Below, piece by piece: positions 6,567 through 59,943 of a stretch of 64,000 nucleotides of DNA. The position numbers and the translations under genes are program-made. The notes beneath the pieces are model-generated. The model searched no databases, was not told where the DNA came from, and saw only the letters and a program-made list of their open reading frames with translations. Source of the stretch: a virus (Duplodnaviria > Heunggongvirae > Uroviricota > Caudoviricetes); the IMG/VR virus record IMGVR_UViG_2541047850_000005, positions 1 through 64,000 of that record; one strand, 5' to 3'. Position 1 is the first letter of the stretch. Each line of letters opens with the position of its first letter.

Positions 6567-6692
6567 ATCACTCTCCATAGTGTCTTGGTTATTTTTCTAT
6601 TTTATAGACATAGGTATGTACTTACAATACAAAAAAAACCCGTAAGGATGGCGGGGCTGTCGTACTGTCGACTAATTACCACTTGCACATTA

Positions 6693-19933: not shown

Positions 19934-19994
19934 ATGTTTTTCTCTTATCGTTTAGTTATTACATTCTTACACAAATTAAGTAAGTATTTACCTA

Positions 19995-24839: not shown

Positions 24840-24963
24840 AAAGAGTTGCGGCTGGCGATTGCCAGCCGCCTTTCTCGTTCCATCCTGGAACTGTGTCTTA
24901 CCGACACATTGTCATCCTGACGCCGATAAGATACATGATTTATAATGATAGGTAAACACTTAC

Positions 24964-25557
24964 TTACTGCTTGTTATAAACAAAACCAATATCTTTCTTG
25001 TGAGGCATATCTGCTGCGGAAAAAGCTGCGATCTTCGCGAGTCGATCACATATTTCATTTTCACGATGCCCGGCGTGACCTTTAACCCACTTCCAGCGAA
25101 CATTATGTCGACTTGCGGCCTCATCCAGACGCTTCCACAGATCAACATTCTTTACCGGTTTTTTGTCAGAAGTCATCCATCCATTGCGTTTCCACCATTT
25201 CATCCACTGTGTCATGCCGTTTTTCAGATACTGGCTATCAGAGTGCAAAATAACGTTGCATGGATATTTCAAACGCTCCAGCCCGATAAGTGCCCCCATC
25301 ATCTCCATGCGGTTATTGGTGGTGCTATGAAAACCATCTGAGAACTCGCGTTCCTCACCACGATACTGAAGAACGATACCGTAACCGCCCGGGCCACCCG
25401 GATTTTTAAGGCAAGAGCCATCACTGAAGATTTTCACGGTTTTAAGCTGGGGATTGAACTCTACGACAGGCGTTGTGGGATTGGTACGGGGAGAATTTTT
25501 GTTTTTGGCTTTTTTGCGAGTTTTTGCTTGCGATCGGGCTGGTGTCTTCGTCGTCAT
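24964..25557 (-). CDS. rnhA: ribonuclease HI with basic N-terminal extension
   Basis: ..[18 protein letters not shown].., ..TTNNRMEMM.., ..HSDSQYL.., ..[15 protein letters not shown].. match RNase HI active-site motifs; start at internal ATG with GGAG RBS. Confidence 0.85.
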
Positions 25558-25611
25558 ATAAACTCCTGAATCAAGCGCCGCGCCGATTTTTTTTTCCTCG
25601 CGCGTGCGCAC

Positions 25612-26141
25612 ACGCGTGCGTGTTAATAATTATTAAAATAAACAAATTACTTCCCAGAACAGGTTTTTATAAACCTGAACTGAACGAACGAAGTGAGTGA
25701 AGTTCACCTCGAACGAAGTGAGAGGTTGTCTTTTCAGGTAATACTCTCCCAGGGAGGTGAGTATAAAATTCCTCACCAACCTGGTCGTTTCATAACCTGA
25801 AAAGTTATGGTCTAAGTCTACTGCCAGCTTAGACTTGGGAAGTTATGGATGACAGCACCCCAGAACCGAGATCTTCCCACACTTTATGAAGGGGAGTACT
25901 GGATTCAACCTCTCGAAACACCCCAGACTCGACAATCATAAAGTGACCCTTGTCTCTGCTCACTTTGGTTCCCCCTTCCCCGACACCTAAACGGCACCGG
26001 TTCTACGCTGGTAGTGAGCTTTTTAAACCTGACGCCAGTGACGCTTACCCCCACCCATCAGGTCGAGCCTCCAGTCTACGACTGGAAACAATCAGATCTT
26101 AGCACTTACAATTCACTTTATGAATAGTTTGTACTTATCTA
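25612..26141. other. ~530-bp ORF-free region with multiple inverted repeats and short direct repeats (candidate structured ncRNA or cis element)
   Basis: no ORF >=60 aa; palindrome GCGCGTGCGCACACGCGTGCG; hairpins CAGGTTT-ttata-AACCTG, GGTGAG-N10-CTCACC, AAGTCT-N12-AGACTT; direct repeat GAACGAAGTGAG x2. Confidence 0.4.
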
Positions 26142-26396
26142 TCATTGTGATTGATTATTTTCTCGACCATGTAGTTGAACATTCAAGGCAAACACCTCAT
26201 TGATCAACTCACCTAAAAGCTGTTCAACAAGTTCGCGATGCTCCCCAAGATGCAAGCACTTAATTGCCCATTCGTACAAGTTGAAAGCCTGCTCTCGATC
26301 TTTCATCATTTCACGAGCCTTAGCCAGAAAATCGCTCTCTACGAGCGCAACGACATTAGTCGGGTATGACATGTTGGTTTCCTTAAAGTGGTTCAT
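26142..26396 (-). CDS. hypothetical protein (84 aa)
   Basis: ORF with ATG, AAGGAAACC RBS. Confidence 0.4.
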   Translation of the reverse strand: MNHFKETNMSYPTNVVALVESDFLAKAREMMKDREQAFNLYEWAIKCLHLGEHRELVEQLLGELINEVFALNVQLHGRENNQSQ

Positions 26397-26556
26397 AAAA
26401 TCGATTTTAAAGCGTCTGGGAAGGGGGTCTAGTGGATTCTGTAGTGATGTTCAGGTCTGGGAGTCTCTGATACAAAACAGCCTGCTTCCGTATATTAATA
26501 ATTAATATGTAGTTATTTATATACAGAAGCAGGTTAATTACACTCGCCAGAACAAA

Positions 26557-27150
26557 CTAAGCAGCCTTCTTTGATGCTCTTTTTTTTCTGACCACATTCG
26601 CAGGATCATACCCTCCCAGACTTTTCATGACGTCCAAAGGGATCTTGCTTATAGAGTGCCCAGCGTCCTGACAGAATCCTCGAAAAACAACGAGCATACT
26701 GCCACCGGGGTTGATGTTTACTTCTACCTGACCCAAATTGACGTCAGGCTCGACAAACGCTACGCGGCCACCAGACAGAATAATCGTCTCATTCGCATAC
26801 TCTGTTGCACGCTCATACCACTTTGTATCGAGGGATTGAGGAATTAGCATCACTGTTGTAACTCCGCGAGCCTGCTCACGTATAGCCGCATCAATCCAGG
26901 GGGAGATTTTGGAGTAGGGTGGATTGAGGAAGGCAATTGTACCTGGCTGCCCCCATTCAGATTTCAAAGCATCGCGCTCAACGCCTATGAAAATAGGCAG
27001 CTTTGCATTGTCCTTGTTGCAGGCAACGTCAACATCAAATGTCACTCCAAGATAACGTTGAATGGCAGAAAACAGCCAATCAGGTGTTCTCCAGAGATCA
27101 CGAAGAGAGTTGTCGCGCTTTCGCTGTTTGATTTTTTCGGCTGCAATCAT
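26557..27150 (-). CDS. phage-type DNA N6-adenine methyltransferase (Dam-like)
   Basis: ..IAFLNPPYSKISPWI.. (NPPY catalytic motif) in a ~200-aa protein, typical of small phage Dam enzymes. Confidence 0.8.
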   Translation of the reverse strand: MIAAEKIKQRKRDNSLRDLWRTPDWLFSAIQRYLGVTFDVDVACNKDNAKLPIFIGVERDALKSEWGQPGTIAFLNPPYSKISPWIDAAIREQARGVTTVMLIPQSLDTKWYERATEYANETIILSGGRVAFVEPDVNLGQVEVNINPGGSMLVVFRGFCQDAGHSISKIPLDVMKSLGGYDPANVVRKKRASKKAA

Positions 27151-27214
27151 CTTTTTTCTCGATAGGTAAGTGATTACCTATTTTTGCATTTGATTTCATG
27201 TATGGCAATCAAAT

Positions 27215-36665: not shown

Positions 36666-36738
36666 GTATCACCAAATAAAGAGGGCCACTAAATATAGTG
36701 GCCCATGTTAATAGATAAGCACCTACCTATCAATGAAA

Positions 36739-41297: not shown

Positions 41298-41551
41298 GTG
41301 TTTTTCCTTTGTGGTTATTTTGATACAAATTTTAAGAGCAATGAGAAGGTAAACAACTATGCATAACGGTATGTTAGGAATGAAACGAGCGTCTTAATAT
41401 ACAAAATTTATAAGTAAGTATATACCTATTTGTTGTGACGCAACTTTGCTTGTCTGTATGACTAAAAATAAGACAGGATCACTGTAGAACGCTATGAGAG
41501 CTATTTTGAGGGGGCGTAGATTCTATCTACGCCAATATACGATCTGGAGGG

Positions 41552-46930: not shown

Positions 46931-49270
46931 TTACTCTTCTACTGACTCGGTGGGGTTGTCTTTTGCTCTTCGGTCGTCGATTGCCTGCAAAGCCGCAATG
47001 ATTTCAGCCAGTGGCTTCTCCCGATACATCTCGACGATCTGCGATTTGGTGTATTTCTTGTCACCAATTTCAACTCGCCCGCTGGCGTTCTTTGGCAGGT
47101 ATCCTTCTTCCAGCATGTACTCGACGAGCGATTCGATAACGTCGAGGCCACGAGTAGGATCGAAGTAGAATTTCCAGGTGCATTTGCCATACGGTGGTGC
47201 AACTTTGTTTTTGATGCATTCTGCGCCTACGTCCTGGCCGATCTTCTCTTTACCATCCTTCATCACCGATGCACCAAGACGGATACGTACAGAAGCGTAG
47301 AACTTCGGTGAATCTCCACCTGGCGACGTAGTAGGGTCGCCAAACATTACACCGATTTTTGTGCGAACCTGATTCAAGAAGATGATGCAGGCGTTGTATT
47401 TGCGTGCCCACAAAGCCAGAGTAGGGAAGTTCGCACTTGTCGCACGAGCCAGTGCCGTATTGTCGTTCATGTTTAGCTGATCTTTGTCTTTGGCAGTGCC
47501 TTCAGCCATCTTTTCGAACTTCTCGGCTTTGGAGTTCGGAACCATAGACGCAAGTGAGTCAGCCACGATACAGATAGGTGCTGATTCAGGAATAAGCTCT
47601 TCATCACGTACCAATTTAAGAATTGTGCCGATCAACTCTACAGAGTCTTCGAAGGTATCAGGCTGCTTGTATACCCACTGACCGTCATCCTCATCTGCGT
47701 TCAGGCCATTGGCTACAGCCAGGCCAACGTCAAAACTGTTTTCATGATCGAGGAATACCGCCAGACCATCTTGTTTTTGAGCGGAGATCATCGCTGCTGT
47801 TGCAAGGAATGTGTTGTGGCTGATAATCCCGTTAGACCAGAAAGAGTGTGTTTCCGGCATCGCTACGTCGAACGTTGGTGCTTCACCTTCCTCAATAGCC
47901 ACGACTTCGTCGTAGAATAAGTTAGAGCCAATTACCGCTGCCAGTTGTGCAAACAGATGCTCGTTAAAACGATTCTTTCTGCCAATGAAGGAGACATAGA
48001 TTTCTCGCAGTTTGTCTATTCCGACACGATCGCCGCGGCCAATAACGTGGTCTACCAGAGCGTAGTCTTCACGGGTGGTCTTGGTGAGCGACTCGTAGAG
48101 TGATTTCACTAAGCCGCTGATGTGCGGAACATAGCCTGAGTAAGTGCGGTCAAAACCAATGTCCCGTTTGGTTGCCACTGATAAACGTGCCGGAGATTCG
48201 AAACCAATCGTTGACAGAAAAAGGTCGTAATTAGAGCCACTGAATGACAGCCGGTAATATGTATTTTCATAACCCGCGACGTGTTTTTCAGAGATAGTTG
48301 ACGTAATCCCCAGATTCAGGAGCATGAGGCGAATTTGCTGTAGCAGCAGCCCACTCGCGCTCACAACCTCAATGCAGCGACCACCATTGACGTGGCATTC
48401 CAGCTCAAAGTAGCCGCGAAGGAATGCAATTTGAGCCTCGCTATTGGCGCGACGCACACTCAACGGAACCTGCTTGCCAGCAGCTTTCTCATACTCCAGA
48501 CCATATTCTTTAAAAAGCAGCGAACGCACCTCTTTGCTAAACAGCACATGGTCTTCCGAGCCGTTATGTTTTCTCGTAACTGGCATCTTGTCTGATACCA
48601 GCGAAATGAGGCGGTAGTACTCATCCTTGATGAATGGATCTGTGTTAGAAAAATGCACAGAATTTTCAGAGGCCACGTATCCGTCAGCAATTAAATAGCC
48701 CATCAGTTTTGCGATATTGGCATCCAAGTGCTGATCGCCGAATTGATGTGTGCCAACCATTGAAGGAATCGTGTCGCCTACACTGATTTTTTCAGCATAC
48801 CGCCAGACGATATTGCCTAAGTCGTCAACCACACGAATTGGGTGACGGAACGTAGCCTCGATGTAACCCCCTGATGCCAGCTTAATGCGCTTGAATTTGC
48901 GACGGTTGTTCCATGTCAGGTGTGAGGTTTTCTCTATCACGCCATTTTCATTGATGAGTCCAACGTTATGCTCTACATCGCGAGTAGTGCATGTTGCTTT
49001 GTGCCCCTCAATCTCAAACAGTTCTTTCACTGTTACCATTCCACGCTCCGTCAGCAGCATGGTGTCTGCGGTAACACATTTCCCCGCACTTGGAGGACCG
49101 AATACTTCGACGATACGACCACATGGGAAACCGCCATCGTAACGACCGGAAATCGCTTTGTTTAACGGAGGAAAGCCTGTGTCAATCCAATGAGTTACTT
49201 TCTGAATTTCGTCGTTGCTACCGATTTTCTTTTTCAGAGCAAGTGCCAGTGCGGATTTTCCTTTTGCCAT
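46931..49270 (-). CDS. recA: RecA-family recombinase interrupted by a 422-aa intein
   Basis: exteins align by eye with E. coli RecA (RIVEVFGPPSAGK|T.., ..IIFLNQVRTKIGVMFGDPTTSPGGDSPKFYASVRIRL..); extein total ~357 aa. Confidence 0.85.
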   Translation of the reverse strand: MAKGKSALALALKKKIGSNDEIQKVTHWIDTGFPPLNKAISGRYDGGFPCGRIVEVFGPPSAGKCVTADTMLLTERGMVTVKELFEIEGHKATCTTRDVEHNVGLINENGVIEKTSHLTWNNRRKFKRIKLASGGYIEATFRHPIRVVDDLGNIVWRYAEKISVGDTIPSMVGTHQFGDQHLDANIAKLMGYLIADGYVASENSVHFSNTDPFIKDEYYRLISLVSDKMPVTRKHNGSEDHVLFSKEVRSLLFKEYGLEYEKAAGKQVPLSVRRANSEAQIAFLRGYFELECHVNGGRCIEVVSASGLLLQQIRLMLLNLGITSTISEKHVAGYENTYYRLSFSGSNYDLFLSTIGFESPARLSVATKRDIGFDRTYSGYVPHISGLVKSLYESLTKTTREDYALVDHVIGRGDRVGIDKLREIYVSFIGRKNRFNEHLFAQLAAVIGSNLFYDEVVAIEEGEAPTFDVAMPETHSFWSNGIISHNTFLATAAMISAQKQDGLAVFLDHENSFDVGLAVANGLNADEDDGQWVYKQPDTFEDSVELIGTILKLVRDEELIPESAPICIVADSLASMVPNSKAEKFEKMAEGTAKDKDQLNMNDNTALARATSANFPTLALWARKYNACIIFLNQVRTKIGVMFGDPTTSPGGDSPKFYASVRIRLGASVMKDGKEKIGQDVGAECIKNKVAPPYGKCTWKFYFDPTRGLDVIESLVEYMLEEGYLPKNASGRVEIGDKKYTKSQIVEMYREKPLAEIIAALQAIDDRRAKDNPTESVEE
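47813..49078 (-). other. intein with LAGLIDADG homing-endonuclease domain inserted in the RecA P-loop (between K64 and T+1)
   Basis: starts with Cys (CVTADTML), ends ..IISHN followed by Thr; LAGLIDADG-like motifs LMGYLIADGYV and AFLRGYFELECH. Confidence 0.75.
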
Positions 49271-59385: not shown

Positions 59386-59943
59386 GGCTAATCCTTTGTT
59401 ATGAAAACAAATTATTTACTAGTATGTTTAATGTAGCACTGCGCGAACAGGGAACTAAGCCATTCGCGCAGGTAGCAGAGGGGTTAACAGGTTCTGACGG
59501 CTAAAGAGCCAGAGCCGGTATTGATAAGCGTGAAGCGTTTGTTATTAAGTAGGAATATAAAGGCTGTTGCGTCATGCATACCAACCTGAATCTGCTCATT
59601 TGGTAATTCGGTGAGAATGTCAGCTACACATTCATCAGCTAATTTTTCAACGTGTCCGATCTCAAGAGTGATTAGGCTGGAAATAGTTGTTTTCATTCAA
59701 TCAATCCATTCTAACTTAAAATATGGTAGGGAGTACTATTAAATCTTATATCATAATTGAACTTATCTATATCATATCTGAGTTAGTTTTGTTACATGTT
59801 ATTAGTCGTTTTTCTCCATTAATGAATGCTGATTGGTTAATATTTGTGCCTGTAGAAAAAATGATTATATCTTTACAACCCTAACCTTTGATGTAATATC
59901 GGTAAGCACTTACCAGAGAGTTTAACGCGCAAAGGTCGCAATA

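Follow-up and report, generated by a model that had tools for sequence, protein, structure and literature searches.

A conserved, structured noncoding RNA encoded in the early operon of SSU5-type phage-plasmids and transcribed in lysogens

Within a 64,000-nucleotide stretch of DNA from a tailed virus (the window), a 584-bp gap without an open reading frame (25558-26141) harbors a structured noncoding RNA, co-oriented with the surrounding genes, that has its own sigma-70 promoter, a 5' hairpin, a multi-domain fold maintained by compensatory base changes, strong sequence conservation, and a discrete transcript in lysogens. On balance, the gap is probably a stand-alone gene for a structured noncoding RNA of approximately 455 nucleotides, the folded RNA being its trans-acting product. 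We infer that the folded RNA itself is functional and acts in trans, and our best guess is that it serves the plasmid-prophage state in a regulatory role or as a scaffold.

Clinical Enterobacterales often harbor SSU5/pHCM2-type phage-plasmids, elements that carry both resistance and defence cargo; to our knowledge, the maintenance of their lysogeny and their switch to lytic growth are essentially unexplained. The RNA, which lacks RefSeq annotation, gives experimenters a practical way into phage-plasmid biology, since the phage-plasmid PhiR41_1 grows on E. coli K-12, and is a new target, large and structured, for structural studies.

The edges of the gap are formed by the start codon of rnhA (ATG at 25557) and by the stop codon of a gene for a 76-aa protein (Table 1), and the RNA is embedded in a long operon of early genes that all lie on the same strand, more than 12 kb from the plasmid replicon (parA partition gene, 12-13 kb). 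A first-pass annotation had described an ORF-free structured region between the RNase HI and Dam-like methyltransferase genes. That region is real, contains no conserved open reading frame, and on its minus strand reaches a minimum free energy of -209.8 kcal/mol versus -167.3 +/- 6.5 in shuffles (z = -6.6; z = -5.1 on the plus strand), but the Dam gene is not adjacent to it, the 76-aa gene lying in between. The GC palindrome reported there is also present, in imperfect form, at 25599-25622; it is better described as a (CA/CG)n tract, the length and register of which differ among relatives (including a 10-nt deletion and extra CACG or CACA units), and it lies outside the conserved RNA, within the variable leader of rnhA. 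C-rich runs, likewise reported, are found on the plus strand and correspond to G-rich runs on the transcribed strand. The A-run and GC-rich segment before rnhA read, on the opposite strand, as a hairpin followed by a T-run, and in one relative (L041) a terminator-like site was called in antisense orientation at the equivalent position.

The rnhA gene, the product of which carries a basic N-terminal extension of approximately 39 aa ahead of the RNase_H domain, is a downstream neighbour that is separate from the RNA unit. While most relatives have rnhA downstream of the RNA, some have deleted or replaced it and kept the RNA, and the DNA in this position is an insertion hotspot for cargo and defence genes. 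In Citrobacter a betT cargo gene takes the place of rnhA, and in Buttiauxella, which has no rnhA there, a convergent UvrD-helicase/AAA-ATPase pair adjoins the RNA; in both, the RNA is intact and displays compensatory changes. A riboswitch, T-box or ribosomal leader was rejected, since the downstream gene is not constant (rnhA, betT, or helicase/ATPase) and the RNA remains intact. The functional tie to RNase HI that had been suggested on the basis of adjacency was not borne out either: no comparable element precedes the RNase H genes of distant phages (38-49% identity).

A sigma-70 extended -10 promoter (TTCATA-17-TGcTAAGAT) occupies positions 26124-26096, with conservation at its key bases: across 33 diverged sequences the TT of the -35 hexamer and the TA..AT of the -10 hexamer are invariant, as is the TG, but in the Klebsiella lineage the -10 hexamer reads TAGAAT and no TG stands at the correct distance. 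A promoter scan of relative L041 called this same site, which there reads TTTAAA-17-TAAAAT and has a TG upstream. The position and orientation of the promoter match the beginning of the conserved block; the RNA would be transcribed from this extended -10 promoter and carry a stabilising hairpin at its 5' end. The sole promoter-like site on the plus strand (26083-26112) lies in the non-conserved flank and is directed away from the RNA. A degenerate palindromic repeat at the -35 hexamer, which in relatives takes the perfect form GGTAAGTACTTACC, may serve as an operator or form a processing hairpin; nine similar sites were found in the window versus 1.3 expected, and at least 13 intergenic copies at a looser threshold. 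The 5' end of the transcript was placed from promoter geometry, and the 3' end from a U-rich tract together with a drop in conservation. A simple terminator scan returned no canonical terminator at the 3' end of the RNA; the tract is U-rich in most lineages and weak in the Klebsiella lineage, and the preceding UGGGAAGUAAU is able to pair with AUAACUUCCCA (25846-25836).

The at least three stem-loops of the first-pass annotation proved to be part of a larger architecture, in which a core of approximately 415 nt, with at least ten helices, follows a variable 5' hairpin. Covariation and invariance were judged on 33 family sequences, and folding with covariation, as that annotation had proposed, gave a consensus structure of 127 pairs (97.9% of cells paired) in which 19 pairs are changed on both sides, compared with 11.5 +/- 1.6 in shuffles (0 of 500 reach 19) and with at most 7 in slid controls. 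The core contains 458 G·U cells versus 6 A·C cells, which identifies the minus strand as the folding strand. Approximately half of the helices (P4, P6, P8 and P9) never vary, and these are therefore predictions only.

Among the individual helices (Table 1), P2 shows one compensatory pair (UA/CG/UG), and P3 shows one-sided changes of G·U to and from G-C or A-U. The P5 domain contains UCGAGUCUGGGGUG, a paralogue (direct repeat) of a motif in P6, and in Buttiauxella its inner helix has been remodelled into a perfect 9-bp stem. P8 has invariant pairs, its apical loop alone differing in sequence and length. The 3' module contains the duplicated sequence noticed at first pass, CGAACGAAGTGAG, which indeed occurs twice in exact form (25685-25697 and 25710-25722), and positions 25680-25702 constitute the 23-mer CTTCACTCACTTCGTTCGTTCAG. 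A long-range pairing of GAGAGGUUG with CAACCUCUC was also considered, and is weakened by a mismatch in Buttiauxella.

Table 1. Features of the RNA locus and its flanks (window coordinates; helices run from the 5' to the 3' end of the RNA)
Feature	Position	Strand	Evidence or remark
Dam-like methyltransferase gene	26557-27150		Pfam Dam; one gene beyond the 76-aa gene, upstream
76-aa protein gene, PHROG 5343	26142..26372	-	constant upstream neighbour of the RNA
Degenerate palindromic repeat copy (family consensus ATAGGTAAGTACTTACCTAT)	26124..26142	.	abuts -35, overlaps stop codon of the 76-aa gene
-35 hexamer TTCATA (family consensus TTYAHA)	26119..26124	-	TT invariant, 33 sequences
Extended -10, TGcTAAGAT	26096..26104	-	hexamer T, A .. 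A, T invariant in family; 17-nt spacer
Predicted ncRNA transcript, ~455 nt	25635..26089	-	promoter, covariation, G·U/A·C asymmetry, identity, RNA-seq of Cyrano homologue
P0, 5'-terminal hairpin	26067..26089	-	sequence variable, pairing kept; 6/10 pairs changed on both sides
P1, long hairpin, G-rich apical part	26026..26064	-	4 compensatory pairs; 99.8% of cells paired
P2 around hairpin P3, with invariant junction GGGGAAGGGGGAACCAAA	25958..26019	-	
P5 domain (CACUUUAUGA/UCAUAAAGUG and inner helices)	25880..25945	-	4 compensatory pairs
P6 domain (UGGGAAG/CUUCCCA and GGGUG/CAUCC), contains UCGGUUCUGGGGUG	25836..25879	-	invariant in 33/33; helix predicted
P7 hairpin	25810..25834	-	2 compensatory pairs and G·U/G-C/A-U variation
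P8, three-part long hairpin (UUUUCAGGU.../...ACCUGAAAA; CCAGG/CCUGG; GGUGAG/CUCACC)	25731..25803	-	RNAalifold prediction
3' module, two UCACUUCGUUCG copies, each in hairpin context	25680..25725	-	invariant in family
P10 hairpin	25653..25684	-	2 compensatory pairs in apical stem (GGUUU/AAACC, GGGG/CCCC, GGGA/UUCC)
U-rich tract (UUUGUUUAUUUU), presumed 3' end	25635..25646	-	conservation ends here; follows UGGGAAGUAAU
Alternating purine-pyrimidine (CA/CG)n tract	25599..25622		imperfect palindrome, 12-nt arms, 92%
A-run (5-9 A, polymorphic length) and GC-rich segment	25575..25595		just upstream of rnhA ribosome-binding site
AGGAG ribosome-binding site of rnhA	25563-25567		
rnhA, RNase HI, 197 aa	24964..25557	-	Pfam RNase_H 1e-44, residues 40-178

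Among relatives, the core shows 91-96% identity, compared with 74-79% for rnhA, the 76-aa gene and dam, and the RNA is the most conserved stretch measured within the four-gene neighbourhood that was compared; its 3'-most 230 nt or so are near-invariant, in loops and helices alike. Searches with nhmmer over sequence collections found the RNA confined to the SSU5 family, where 687 PLSDB plasmids from 11 genera carry it (among them pHCM2 of S. Typhi and numerous K. pneumoniae plasmids), as do 232 of 5426 complete E. coli genomes (4%). Individual records misannotate it, either as a 44-aa protein (CYRAN_81 of phage Cyrano, which falls inside the RNA) or as part of RNase H, extending its N-terminus. 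A small protein-coding gene, such as CYRAN_81, or a type I toxin is scarcely credible as an explanation of the locus: apart from that one annotated CDS, such a reading could draw on a 36-aa ORF, the only one in the gap with an ATG start, but the frame and length of that ORF are changed among relatives by 1-nt indels, substitutions are compensatory in stems rather than concentrated at third codon positions, and PGAP leaves the locus blank in 233 RefSeq records. The gap was judged non-coding because of the frame-breaking indels, and the short conserved genes that might have overturned the reading as an RNA were not found; a hok/sok-like toxin was rejected for want of a conserved ORF and of any hydrophobic peptide.

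The RNA belongs to no catalogued family. A search of the whole window against Rfam 15 at gathering thresholds, a step suggested at first pass, gave no matches, whether to C4 antisense RNA, RNAI, ROOL, GOLLD, OLE, raiA and HEARO or to group I and II introns, T-box, 6S, RNase P and tmRNA, and a relaxed search of positions 25400-26600 (E<=10) produced chance-level hits only, the best scoring 21 bits against a threshold of 56. ARAGORN predicted no tRNA or tmRNA genes in the window. A retron (msr-msd), raised at first pass as a long shot, was discarded, as no reverse transcriptase is present: the neighbours encode only RNase_H, the 76-aa helical protein and Dam, and the 'Reverse Transcriptase' of one record is a label on the RNase H gene. 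A search of the rest of the 64-kb window for antisense targets found complementarity to the RNA of at most 12 nt, which does not exceed chance, and literature searches on SSU5, pHCM2 and phage-plasmids brought up no described RNA or origin.

The transcript itself is visible in published RNA-seq data (GEO GSE154648) from E. coli LF82 carrying the phage-plasmid Cyrano (OV696614, with the locus at 78,478-79,060), in which the CYRAN_81 segment displays log2(fpkm+5) values of 6.8-10.35 across five conditions (PMC9928086), compared with 3.1-5.8 for the gene upstream of the RNA and 2.6-5.0 for rnhA (PMC9928086 Table 1, S1 Table). The segment is 10-40 times above either neighbour in these lysogens, as counted over the 135-nt annotated CDS only and in data that may not be strand-specific, and its level increases inside macrophages. 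The RNA is made while the surrounding lytic genes are silent, its locus is among the few of the element transcribed in dormant cells, and the low expression of rnhA indicates little read-through. The 76-aa protein was considered as a Rop-like RNA-binding partner and set aside, as a PDB sequence search and a Foldseek search with its AlphaFold model (all-helical, pLDDT 73) gave no informative match; its gene is poorly expressed when the RNA is abundant (Cyrano).

A high leader with low downstream genes is also the OFF state expected of the main rival explanation, which is unlikely: a cis-acting attenuator or immunity leader in the manner of phage P4 CI. Here a promoter active in lysogeny would drive a long leader that ends by self-termination ahead of rnhA and the early genes beyond it. 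P4 CI, P1 c4 and N15 CA are immunity RNAs of phage-plasmids (references in PMC3632133) and provide the precedent, and the location within a long same-strand early operon fits. The segment UGGGAAG occurs twice (25879-25873 and 25656-25650) and CUUCCCA, the second strand of P6, only once (25842-25836), so that the latter has an alternative partner in the downstream copy. According to this explanation, the pairing of CUUCCCA with that copy would create an 8-bp stem directly before the U-tract and act as a terminator, the P6 pairing would prevent it, a signal or factor would shift the balance so that the early genes are read, and the released leader could act in trans on a superinfecting relative. 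Both pairings exist, the stem-to-U-tract geometry is terminator-like only for the long-range one, and the order of the segments resembles the A-B-C order of phage P4. However, the complementarity extends over just 7-8 nt and shows no variation, all three segments being invariant; the downstream gene is inconstant and the RNA survives its replacement; 455 nt and at least ten helices far exceed what attenuation needs; no C4 family match was obtained from Rfam; and the U-tract is poor in the Klebsiella lineage. Competition of the duplicated UGGGAAG for one CUUCCCA would be equally compatible with a cis-acting switch and with a trans-acting RNA.

Elements of the 3' module recur far outside the family. 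The 23-mer, a hairpin of the 3' domain, is found exactly in 53 non-SSU5 metagenome contigs and has exact copies in T4-like phages and immediately behind tRNA genes of haloarchaea, and the module is 93% identical to one in unrelated phage contigs. In T4-like contigs two inverted copies of the module enclose AT-rich or direct-repeat DNA. In archaeal contigs the 23-mer lies beside duplicated tRNA 3' ends, which are a hallmark of integration sites, and in haloarchaea the unit with the duplicated end measures 75-85 bp; Rfam searches of the unrelated contigs and genomes that contain the hairpin motif returned tRNAs only. The folding of the module is ambiguous. Its plus strand reads GA-AC-GAA-GU-GA, a Watson-Crick-closed C-GAA-G triloop on tandem G·A mismatches, and at the sequence level the mini-hairpin ssi signature (..AC-GAA-GT.. 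with GA/GA flanks) occurs twice on that strand; an RNA energy model favors the plus strand for the hairpin caps (-8.2 versus -4.2 kcal/mol), and a standard DNA energy model gives them no special stability. Two further leads were dropped: (i) the doubled 12-mer has more than 120 genome matches, in random orientation relative to genes, and a rough estimate predicts approximately 100 for any 12-mer within tandem repeats; and (ii) the 11-mer CACUUCGUUCG is identical to the E. coli tRNA-Pro(CGG) anticodon arm along its 5' side, a mimicry judged coincidental because the identity goes no further and because organisms whose tRNA-Pro sequences differ have the motif too.

These observations bear on two further explanations, both of which the first-pass annotation had anticipated in proposing a secondary origin, a recombination site, or an R-loop element tied to RNase HI. 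An RNA-primed R-loop origin, as modelled by ColE1 RNA II and T4 oriF/oriG, would have the transcript form a persistent hybrid near the downstream AT-rich stretch, be cut by RNase HI and prime the leading strand. It is improbable, although the locus combines a promoter, a long structured G-rich transcript, a 30-60-bp AT-rich segment, a GC-rich tract and an adjacent RNase HI gene, although the inverted module pair around AT-rich or direct-repeat DNA in T4-like contigs looks origin-like, and although the hairpins of the template strand are capped by C-GAA-G, a type of cap described at the single-strand priming signals G4 oric and RSF1010 ssiA (PMC13037366). There is no GC-skew inflection at 25.6-26.1 kb; the RNA is abundant in lysogens, when lytic replication is off; rnhA is dispensable for retention of the element; the replicase is of the Pol III alpha type rather than the Pol I type; no conserved antisense promoter, RNA I-like partner or Rfam RNAI match was found; the sequence of the AT-rich segment is not conserved; and the 5' stabilising hairpin, with wobble asymmetry throughout, is the pattern of a stable folded RNA. 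Inspection of the alignment by eye revealed no iterons and no conserved DnaA boxes.

Still less probable is a DNA-level element (a recombination, insertion, partition or protein-binding site, or single-strand hairpins) of which transcription is incidental. The insertion hotspot just downstream, the palindromic repeat abutting the promoter, hairpin caps that fold best on the non-RNA strand, and the position of the 23-mer beside archaeal tRNA 3' ends would all accord with it, but duplex or cruciform DNA cannot explain the asymmetry between G·U and A·C cells, and a conserved promoter at the correct distance, a discrete transcript, and compensatory changes in hairpins that lack the character of palindromic protein sites all speak for RNA. 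The origin, recombination and R-loop proposals of the first-pass annotation accordingly lose ground to its suggestion of a structured noncoding RNA, which the conserved promoter, strand-specific covariation, conservation above that of the neighbours and the published transcript uphold.

If the preferred reading of a trans-acting RNA holds, its 3' 230 nt would contact at least one conserved partner, be it a protein of the host or of the phage-plasmid, or a second nucleic acid, as near-invariance of loops as well as helices suggests sequence-specific contacts. That the RNA is made in dormant cells suggests a role in the life of the plasmid-prophage rather than in lytic DNA replication; this role might consist in immunity or control of the early lytic operon, in maintenance, or in protection of the host or element. 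A more ambitious version, which we regard as distinctly doubtful, is that the RNA is a lysogeny or immunity determinant, or a large RNA-only or ribonucleoprotein machine with an activity of its own, and that its 3' module is a portable hairpin unit spread across domains of life. Were this true, a 450-nt RNA would hold the early lytic operon off or protect the element, as a counterpart of P4 CI and P1 c4 that is much larger and has no structural relationship to them, and the shared 23-mer would imply an undescribed universal recognition or mobility mechanism.

Several known systems invite comparison. With hairpin I of G4 oric and with ssiA and ssiB of RSF1010, the 3' module shares a GNA triloop and, in T4-like contigs, facing copies across AT-rich DNA (PMC13037366); in the phage-plasmids, however, unlike in RSF1010 oriV, the module has one orientation only and is part of a region that is transcribed and constrained as RNA; the motif is also found in archaeal tRNA trailers, where DnaG-type priming does not apply. 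ColE1 RNA II is likewise a structured, plasmid-borne transcript of approximately 500 nt with G-rich stretches and a constitutive promoter, and here an RNase H gene is adjacent; the present locus differs in having no antisense RNA I or corresponding promoter, no Pol I-type polymerase and no skew switch, and in the dispensability of rnhA. 

The large ornate RNAs ROOL, GOLLD, OLE, raiA and HEARO are similar in being hundreds of nucleotides long, multi-domain, supported by covariation, associated with mobile elements or prophages, and discretely expressed, whereas the present RNA matches none of their Rfam families, is narrowly distributed (one family of Enterobacterales phage-plasmids) and gives no sign of multimerisation; fewer of its helices are proven by covariation because its primary sequence is so highly conserved. 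The immunity RNAs P4 CI, P1/P7 c4 and N15 CA (Rfam C4) are 70-80 nt long, processed from a leader, and complementary to their targets over 15-20 nt, compared with approximately 455 nt, at least ten helices and 7-8 nt here, where the downstream genes are moreover inconstant and neither sequence nor covariance model gives a match. They are nevertheless, like the RNA described here, noncoding RNAs of the lysogenic or plasmid state, with a promoter in or ahead of an early or antirepressor operon, internal repeats complementary in sequence to a single segment, and a strong leader followed by silent downstream genes.

The window belongs to a phage-plasmid of the SSU5/pHCM2 type: it matches Escherichia phage PhiR41_1 at 100% identity, E. 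coli phage-plasmids that include Cyrano (pLF82) at 97-98%, and both Salmonella phage SSU5 and Klebsiella relatives at approximately 82%. The genes surrounding the gap upstream of rnhA are all carried on the minus strand, and the products of the wider operon include ribonucleotide reductase, ThyA, DHFR, a Pol III epsilon-like exonuclease, an SbcCD-like nuclease, a Pol III alpha-type polymerase and an intein-containing RecA-fold protein that may, at a guess, be the replicative helicase. The first-pass annotation placed a structured, ORF-free region of 530 bp between the RNase HI and methyltransferase genes; the gap is real, but it measures 584 bp, and a small gene lies before the methyltransferase. 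The features listed for it were all located in the sequence, some with corrections: the GC palindrome is present at 25599-25622, but is an alternating purine-pyrimidine tract outside the conserved element, and the duplicated 'GAACGAAGTGAG' corresponds to two copies of UCACUUCGUUCG. The window contains no tRNA and the gap no conserved ORF, its sole ATG ORF changing frame among lineages. A second non-coding gap (26397-26556), between dam and the gene for the 76-aa protein, contains a long AT-rich hairpin (26478-26535) followed on the minus strand by a U-rich run, which together are probably the dam terminator, as well as a promoter-like site (26431-26404); because of this candidate terminator and promoter-like site, this stretch appears to be a series of small separate transcription units.

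Coordinates of features in the window and in comparison sequences
Feature	Coordinates	Strand	Remarks
779-aa protein, RecA-fold ATPase domain split by intein with LAGLIDADG endonuclease	46931-49270	-	Pfam RecA, Intein_splicing, LAGLIDADG_3
Dam-like methyltransferase	27150-26557	-	first in transcription order
76-aa helical protein, function unassigned (PHROG 5343)	26372-26142	-	
Gap with RNA	26141-25558	-	
RNase HI (rnhA)	25557-24964	-	
-35 element TTCATA	26124-26119	-	
Extended -10 element TGcTAAGAT	26104-26096	-	
P0 hairpin	from ~26089	-	~7 nt 3' of the -10; sequence differs per lineage, pairing kept
Palindrome copies	59901-59914, 41413-41426, 36714-36727, 27165-27178, 26124-26142, 24951-24964, 19979-19992, 6613-6626, others		
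CYRAN_81, annotated 44-aa 'hypothetical protein' of Cyrano	78657-78791; L351 2680-2814		inside RNA (P5-P7)
Hairpin module copies, T4-like contigs	L200 9026-9073, 9201-9255; L220 3940-4190		
23-mer elsewhere	L372 3890-3912; L374 692-714; L398 2434-2456		exact match

The gap is the best-conserved DNA of its neighbourhood. It was matched by blastn in 687 PLSDB plasmids, nearly all of them non-mobilisable and approximately 100-120 kb in length, from Klebsiella, Escherichia, Enterobacter, Salmonella, Citrobacter, Cronobacter, Shigella and other hosts, and is present in 12 phage records and in 232 of 5426 complete E. coli genomes, with no PGAP annotation beneath it. When compared with five diverged relatives, the core shows 91-96% identity, as against 74-76% for dam and 74-81% for the 76-aa gene; the corresponding value for rnhA is 74-79% in four of the five and 92% in the closest, L033. 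The conserved block starts sharply, approximately 25 nt past the predicted transcription start, and ends ...CUGGGAAGUAA, after which follows a U-rich tract of variable sequence. Its 3' ~230 nt (P6-P10) are essentially invariant in loops and helices alike, which implies sequence-specific contacts beyond the fold alone.

That this region is structured, as initially proposed, was borne out by its folding, which is much more stable than that of dinucleotide shuffles (z = -6.6 for the minus and -5.1 for the plus strand). A structure extending from P0 to P10 (helices and domains numbered 5' to 3') was built using RNAalifold and hand curation, with counts made on 33 distinct sequences. Standard pairs account for 97.9% of cells, and the covariation analysis in relatives that the first-pass annotation had suggested revealed 19 pairs changed on both sides, versus 11.5 +/- 1.6 in column shuffles (none of 500 reaching 19) and 2-7 in slid controls with partners moved 1-3 columns; the covariation score was 0.107, versus 0.067 for shuffles and at most 0.039 for slid controls. 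Direct covariation supports P0 (6 of 10 pairs altered on both sides), P1, P2, P5, P7 and P10, and the most diverged member, from Buttiauxella, displays extra compensatory changes in P1 and in P5, where an interrupted inner helix becomes a perfect 9-bp stem; P4, P6, P8 and P9, which never vary, are predicted helices. When read on the minus strand, the core helices contain 458 G.U and 6 A.C cells, and a change on one side of a pair always gives G.U on that strand, never on the plus one. This asymmetry, which agrees with the promoter, is decisive in assigning the folded molecule to the gene-sense (minus) strand.

Every lineage carries, 5' of the conserved block, the arrangement TTYAHA, a 17-nt spacer and (TG)nTAnnAT, and the bases that are invariant in the 33-sequence alignment (the -35 TT, the TG and TA..AT) are exactly those important to an extended -10 promoter; a consensus promoter scan of the relative L041 returned TTTAAA-17-TAAAAT with an upstream TG at the homologous position. 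P0, with its variable sequence and retained pairing, looks like a typical stabilising hairpin of an RNA 5' end. In strain LF82 grown in LB, CYRAN_81 is expressed 12-fold over prophage background and appears on the list of Misson et al., with its cut-off of at least 5-fold (PMC9928086). Its log2(fpkm+5) values in two replicates were 6.82 / 6.92 (LB stationary), 9.34 / 9.02 (1 h), 6.94 / 6.89 (6 h), 8.97 / 8.23 (macrophage, 1 h) and 10.35 / 10.30 (macrophage, 6 h), with 3.1-5.8 for the upstream 76-aa gene and 2.6-5.0 for rnhA (PMC9928086 S1 Table). The segment thus stands 10-40 times over both neighbours in all conditions, in a count that spans only the 135 nt of CYRAN_81 and whose reads possibly come from either strand; this difference indicates that the promoter is active in the plasmid-prophage state and that most transcription stops before rnhA. 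The RNA, whose 5' and 3' ends are predicted, is expressed as a discrete unit in lysogens, and the earlier proposal of a structured non-coding RNA is sustained by conserved promoter, minus-strand covariation, high conservation and published RNA-seq from lysogens. CYRAN_81 itself is an apparent mis-annotation due to the unrecognised RNA, as is SSU5_090 (L002 5562-6326), an RNase H annotated at 765 nt versus 594 nt elsewhere, whose N-terminal extension reaches into the leader and into the 3' portion of the RNA.

The rnhA leader of the window (25575-25622) comprises an A-run and an alternating purine-pyrimidine (CA/CG)n tract with a propensity for Z-DNA, the length of each differing among strains (A5-A9; +/-10 nt); on its opposite strand, a GC hairpin and T-run make up a canonical terminator directed at the RNA gene, which was called in L041. 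A palindrome of approximately 20 bp (consensus ATAGGTAAGTACTTACCTAT) recurs in at least 13 copies across the window, with 9 matches at no more than 3 mismatches versus 1.3 expected, almost all in short intergenic spaces of minus-strand operons and one adjoining the RNA promoter. The copies might serve a global repressor as its operators, in the manner of P1 C1, or might be intercistronic RNA hairpins.

Collection searches with the 3' module (25680-25725) identified, in unrelated low-GC phage contigs, a module of 45 nt with 93% identity. Genes for a late sigma factor, an SbcCD-like nuclease and a helicase are present on these contigs, which we infer to be candidate T4-like phages; there the module forms an inverted pair around AT-rich DNA or 47-bp direct repeats. 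Adjoining it in L200 (9322-9560) and L220 (4232-4470) is a non-coding region of ~240 nt, 75% identical and with no Rfam match, that may represent a further phage RNA. The 23-mer CTTCACTCACTTCGTTCGTTCAG (25702-25680, minus) is found exactly in 90 metagenome stretches, of which 80 were retrieved (27 SSU5-like and 53 not). Many of the 53 are high-GC, haloarchaeal-type contigs, in which the 23-mer lies 2-3 nt past genes for tRNA-Ala(GGC), tRNA-Ala(CGC), tRNA-Arg(CCU) and tRNA-Arg(GCG). After it come a sequence complementary to the 3' strand of that tRNA, another hairpin whose loop is a variant, and a directly repeated copy of the tRNA 3' end. The variant loops (TCGCTTCGCTCG, TCGCTGCGCTCG, TCACTCCGTTCG) display R/Y covariation, and the complementary strand reads GA-RC-GNA-GY-GA, which amounts to a 'mini-hairpin' with a GNA triloop, stacked upon tandem G.A pairs (PMC13037366); by an RNA energy model that strand folds better (-8.2 vs -4.2 kcal/mol), whereas a DNA model rates the two as equal. 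The raw genome-match count of the doubled 12-mer is probably close to what tandem repeats would give by chance, and its orientation relative to genes is random; chance does not account for the exact 23-mer being shared between domains of life. A portable hairpin unit is one possibility, and the main conclusion is unaffected. A tRNA-Pro mimic was considered for CACUUCGUUCG (25685-25696, 25710-25721), which equals the 5' half of the E. coli tRNA-Pro(CGG) anticodon arm (A26 to G35); the identity stops there and was judged coincidence.

The RNA is independent of rnhA. In the Citrobacter plasmid pCF20-4P-1-3 (L349 2940-5263), a betT choline transporter is carried as cargo directly 3' of it, and in the Buttiauxella plasmid p1WJP83 (L350 1990-3498) rnhA is cut to a few codons, followed by a convergent UvrD-helicase and AAA-ATPase pair that is possibly a Gabija-like defence system; both plasmids retain the RNA and the 76-aa gene intact, and the DNA directly 3' of the RNA is a hotspot of insertion and replacement. 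In two IMG/VR variants whose rnhA region is disrupted, the RNA is absent but the palindromic repeat is present, and no comparable element was found upstream of distant phage RNase H genes. These observations bear on the suggestion that the site is an RNase HI-linked origin, R-loop-dependent or RNA-primed: persistence of the RNA without rnhA, a cumulative GC skew that is monotonic across the site, and its abundance while lytic replication is off all run against it. With no conserved antisense promoter found, a polymerase of the Pol III alpha type, and an AT-rich stretch 3' of the RNA that lacks sequence conservation, a replication origin here is very improbable.

By a modest preference, the RNA is read as a folded molecule that acts in trans during lysogeny and has a conserved partner, although no complementary target was found within the 64-kb window; sequence and AlphaFold-model searches with the 76-aa protein (PDB and Foldseek) gave no clue to its function. 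The main rival is modelled on the satellite phage-plasmid P4, in which an RNA derived from the leader (seqA-cI-seqC) causes early-operon transcription to terminate prematurely. UGGGAAG occurs twice (25879-25873 and 25656-25650), each copy complementary to a single CUUCCCA (25842-25836), in an A-B-C order that recalls that of P4; only pairing with the downstream copy, which creates an 8-bp stem 3 nt 5' of the U-tract, provides terminator-like geometry. The complementarity is short, however, the pairing segments never vary, and the downstream genes differ among relatives, so that such an attenuator or immunity leader would seem unlikely. The RNA also displays internal paralogy, with UCG(A/G)(G/U)UCUGGGGUG at equivalent sites in P5 and P6.

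An Rfam scan returned no family at the gathering threshold or at E<=10, and we rate the RNA as a new RNA family, outside all those in Rfam, of a general kind already known. It is of interest in that its host element is widespread clinically, that it is the most constrained sequence of its neighbourhood, and that it is experimentally tractable. Among known systems, its nearest counterparts are either the phage-plasmid immunity RNAs, in lysogenic expression and early-operon position, or the large ornate RNAs found on mobile elements, in size, complexity and lack of assigned function; its resemblance to ColE1 RNA II is superficial.
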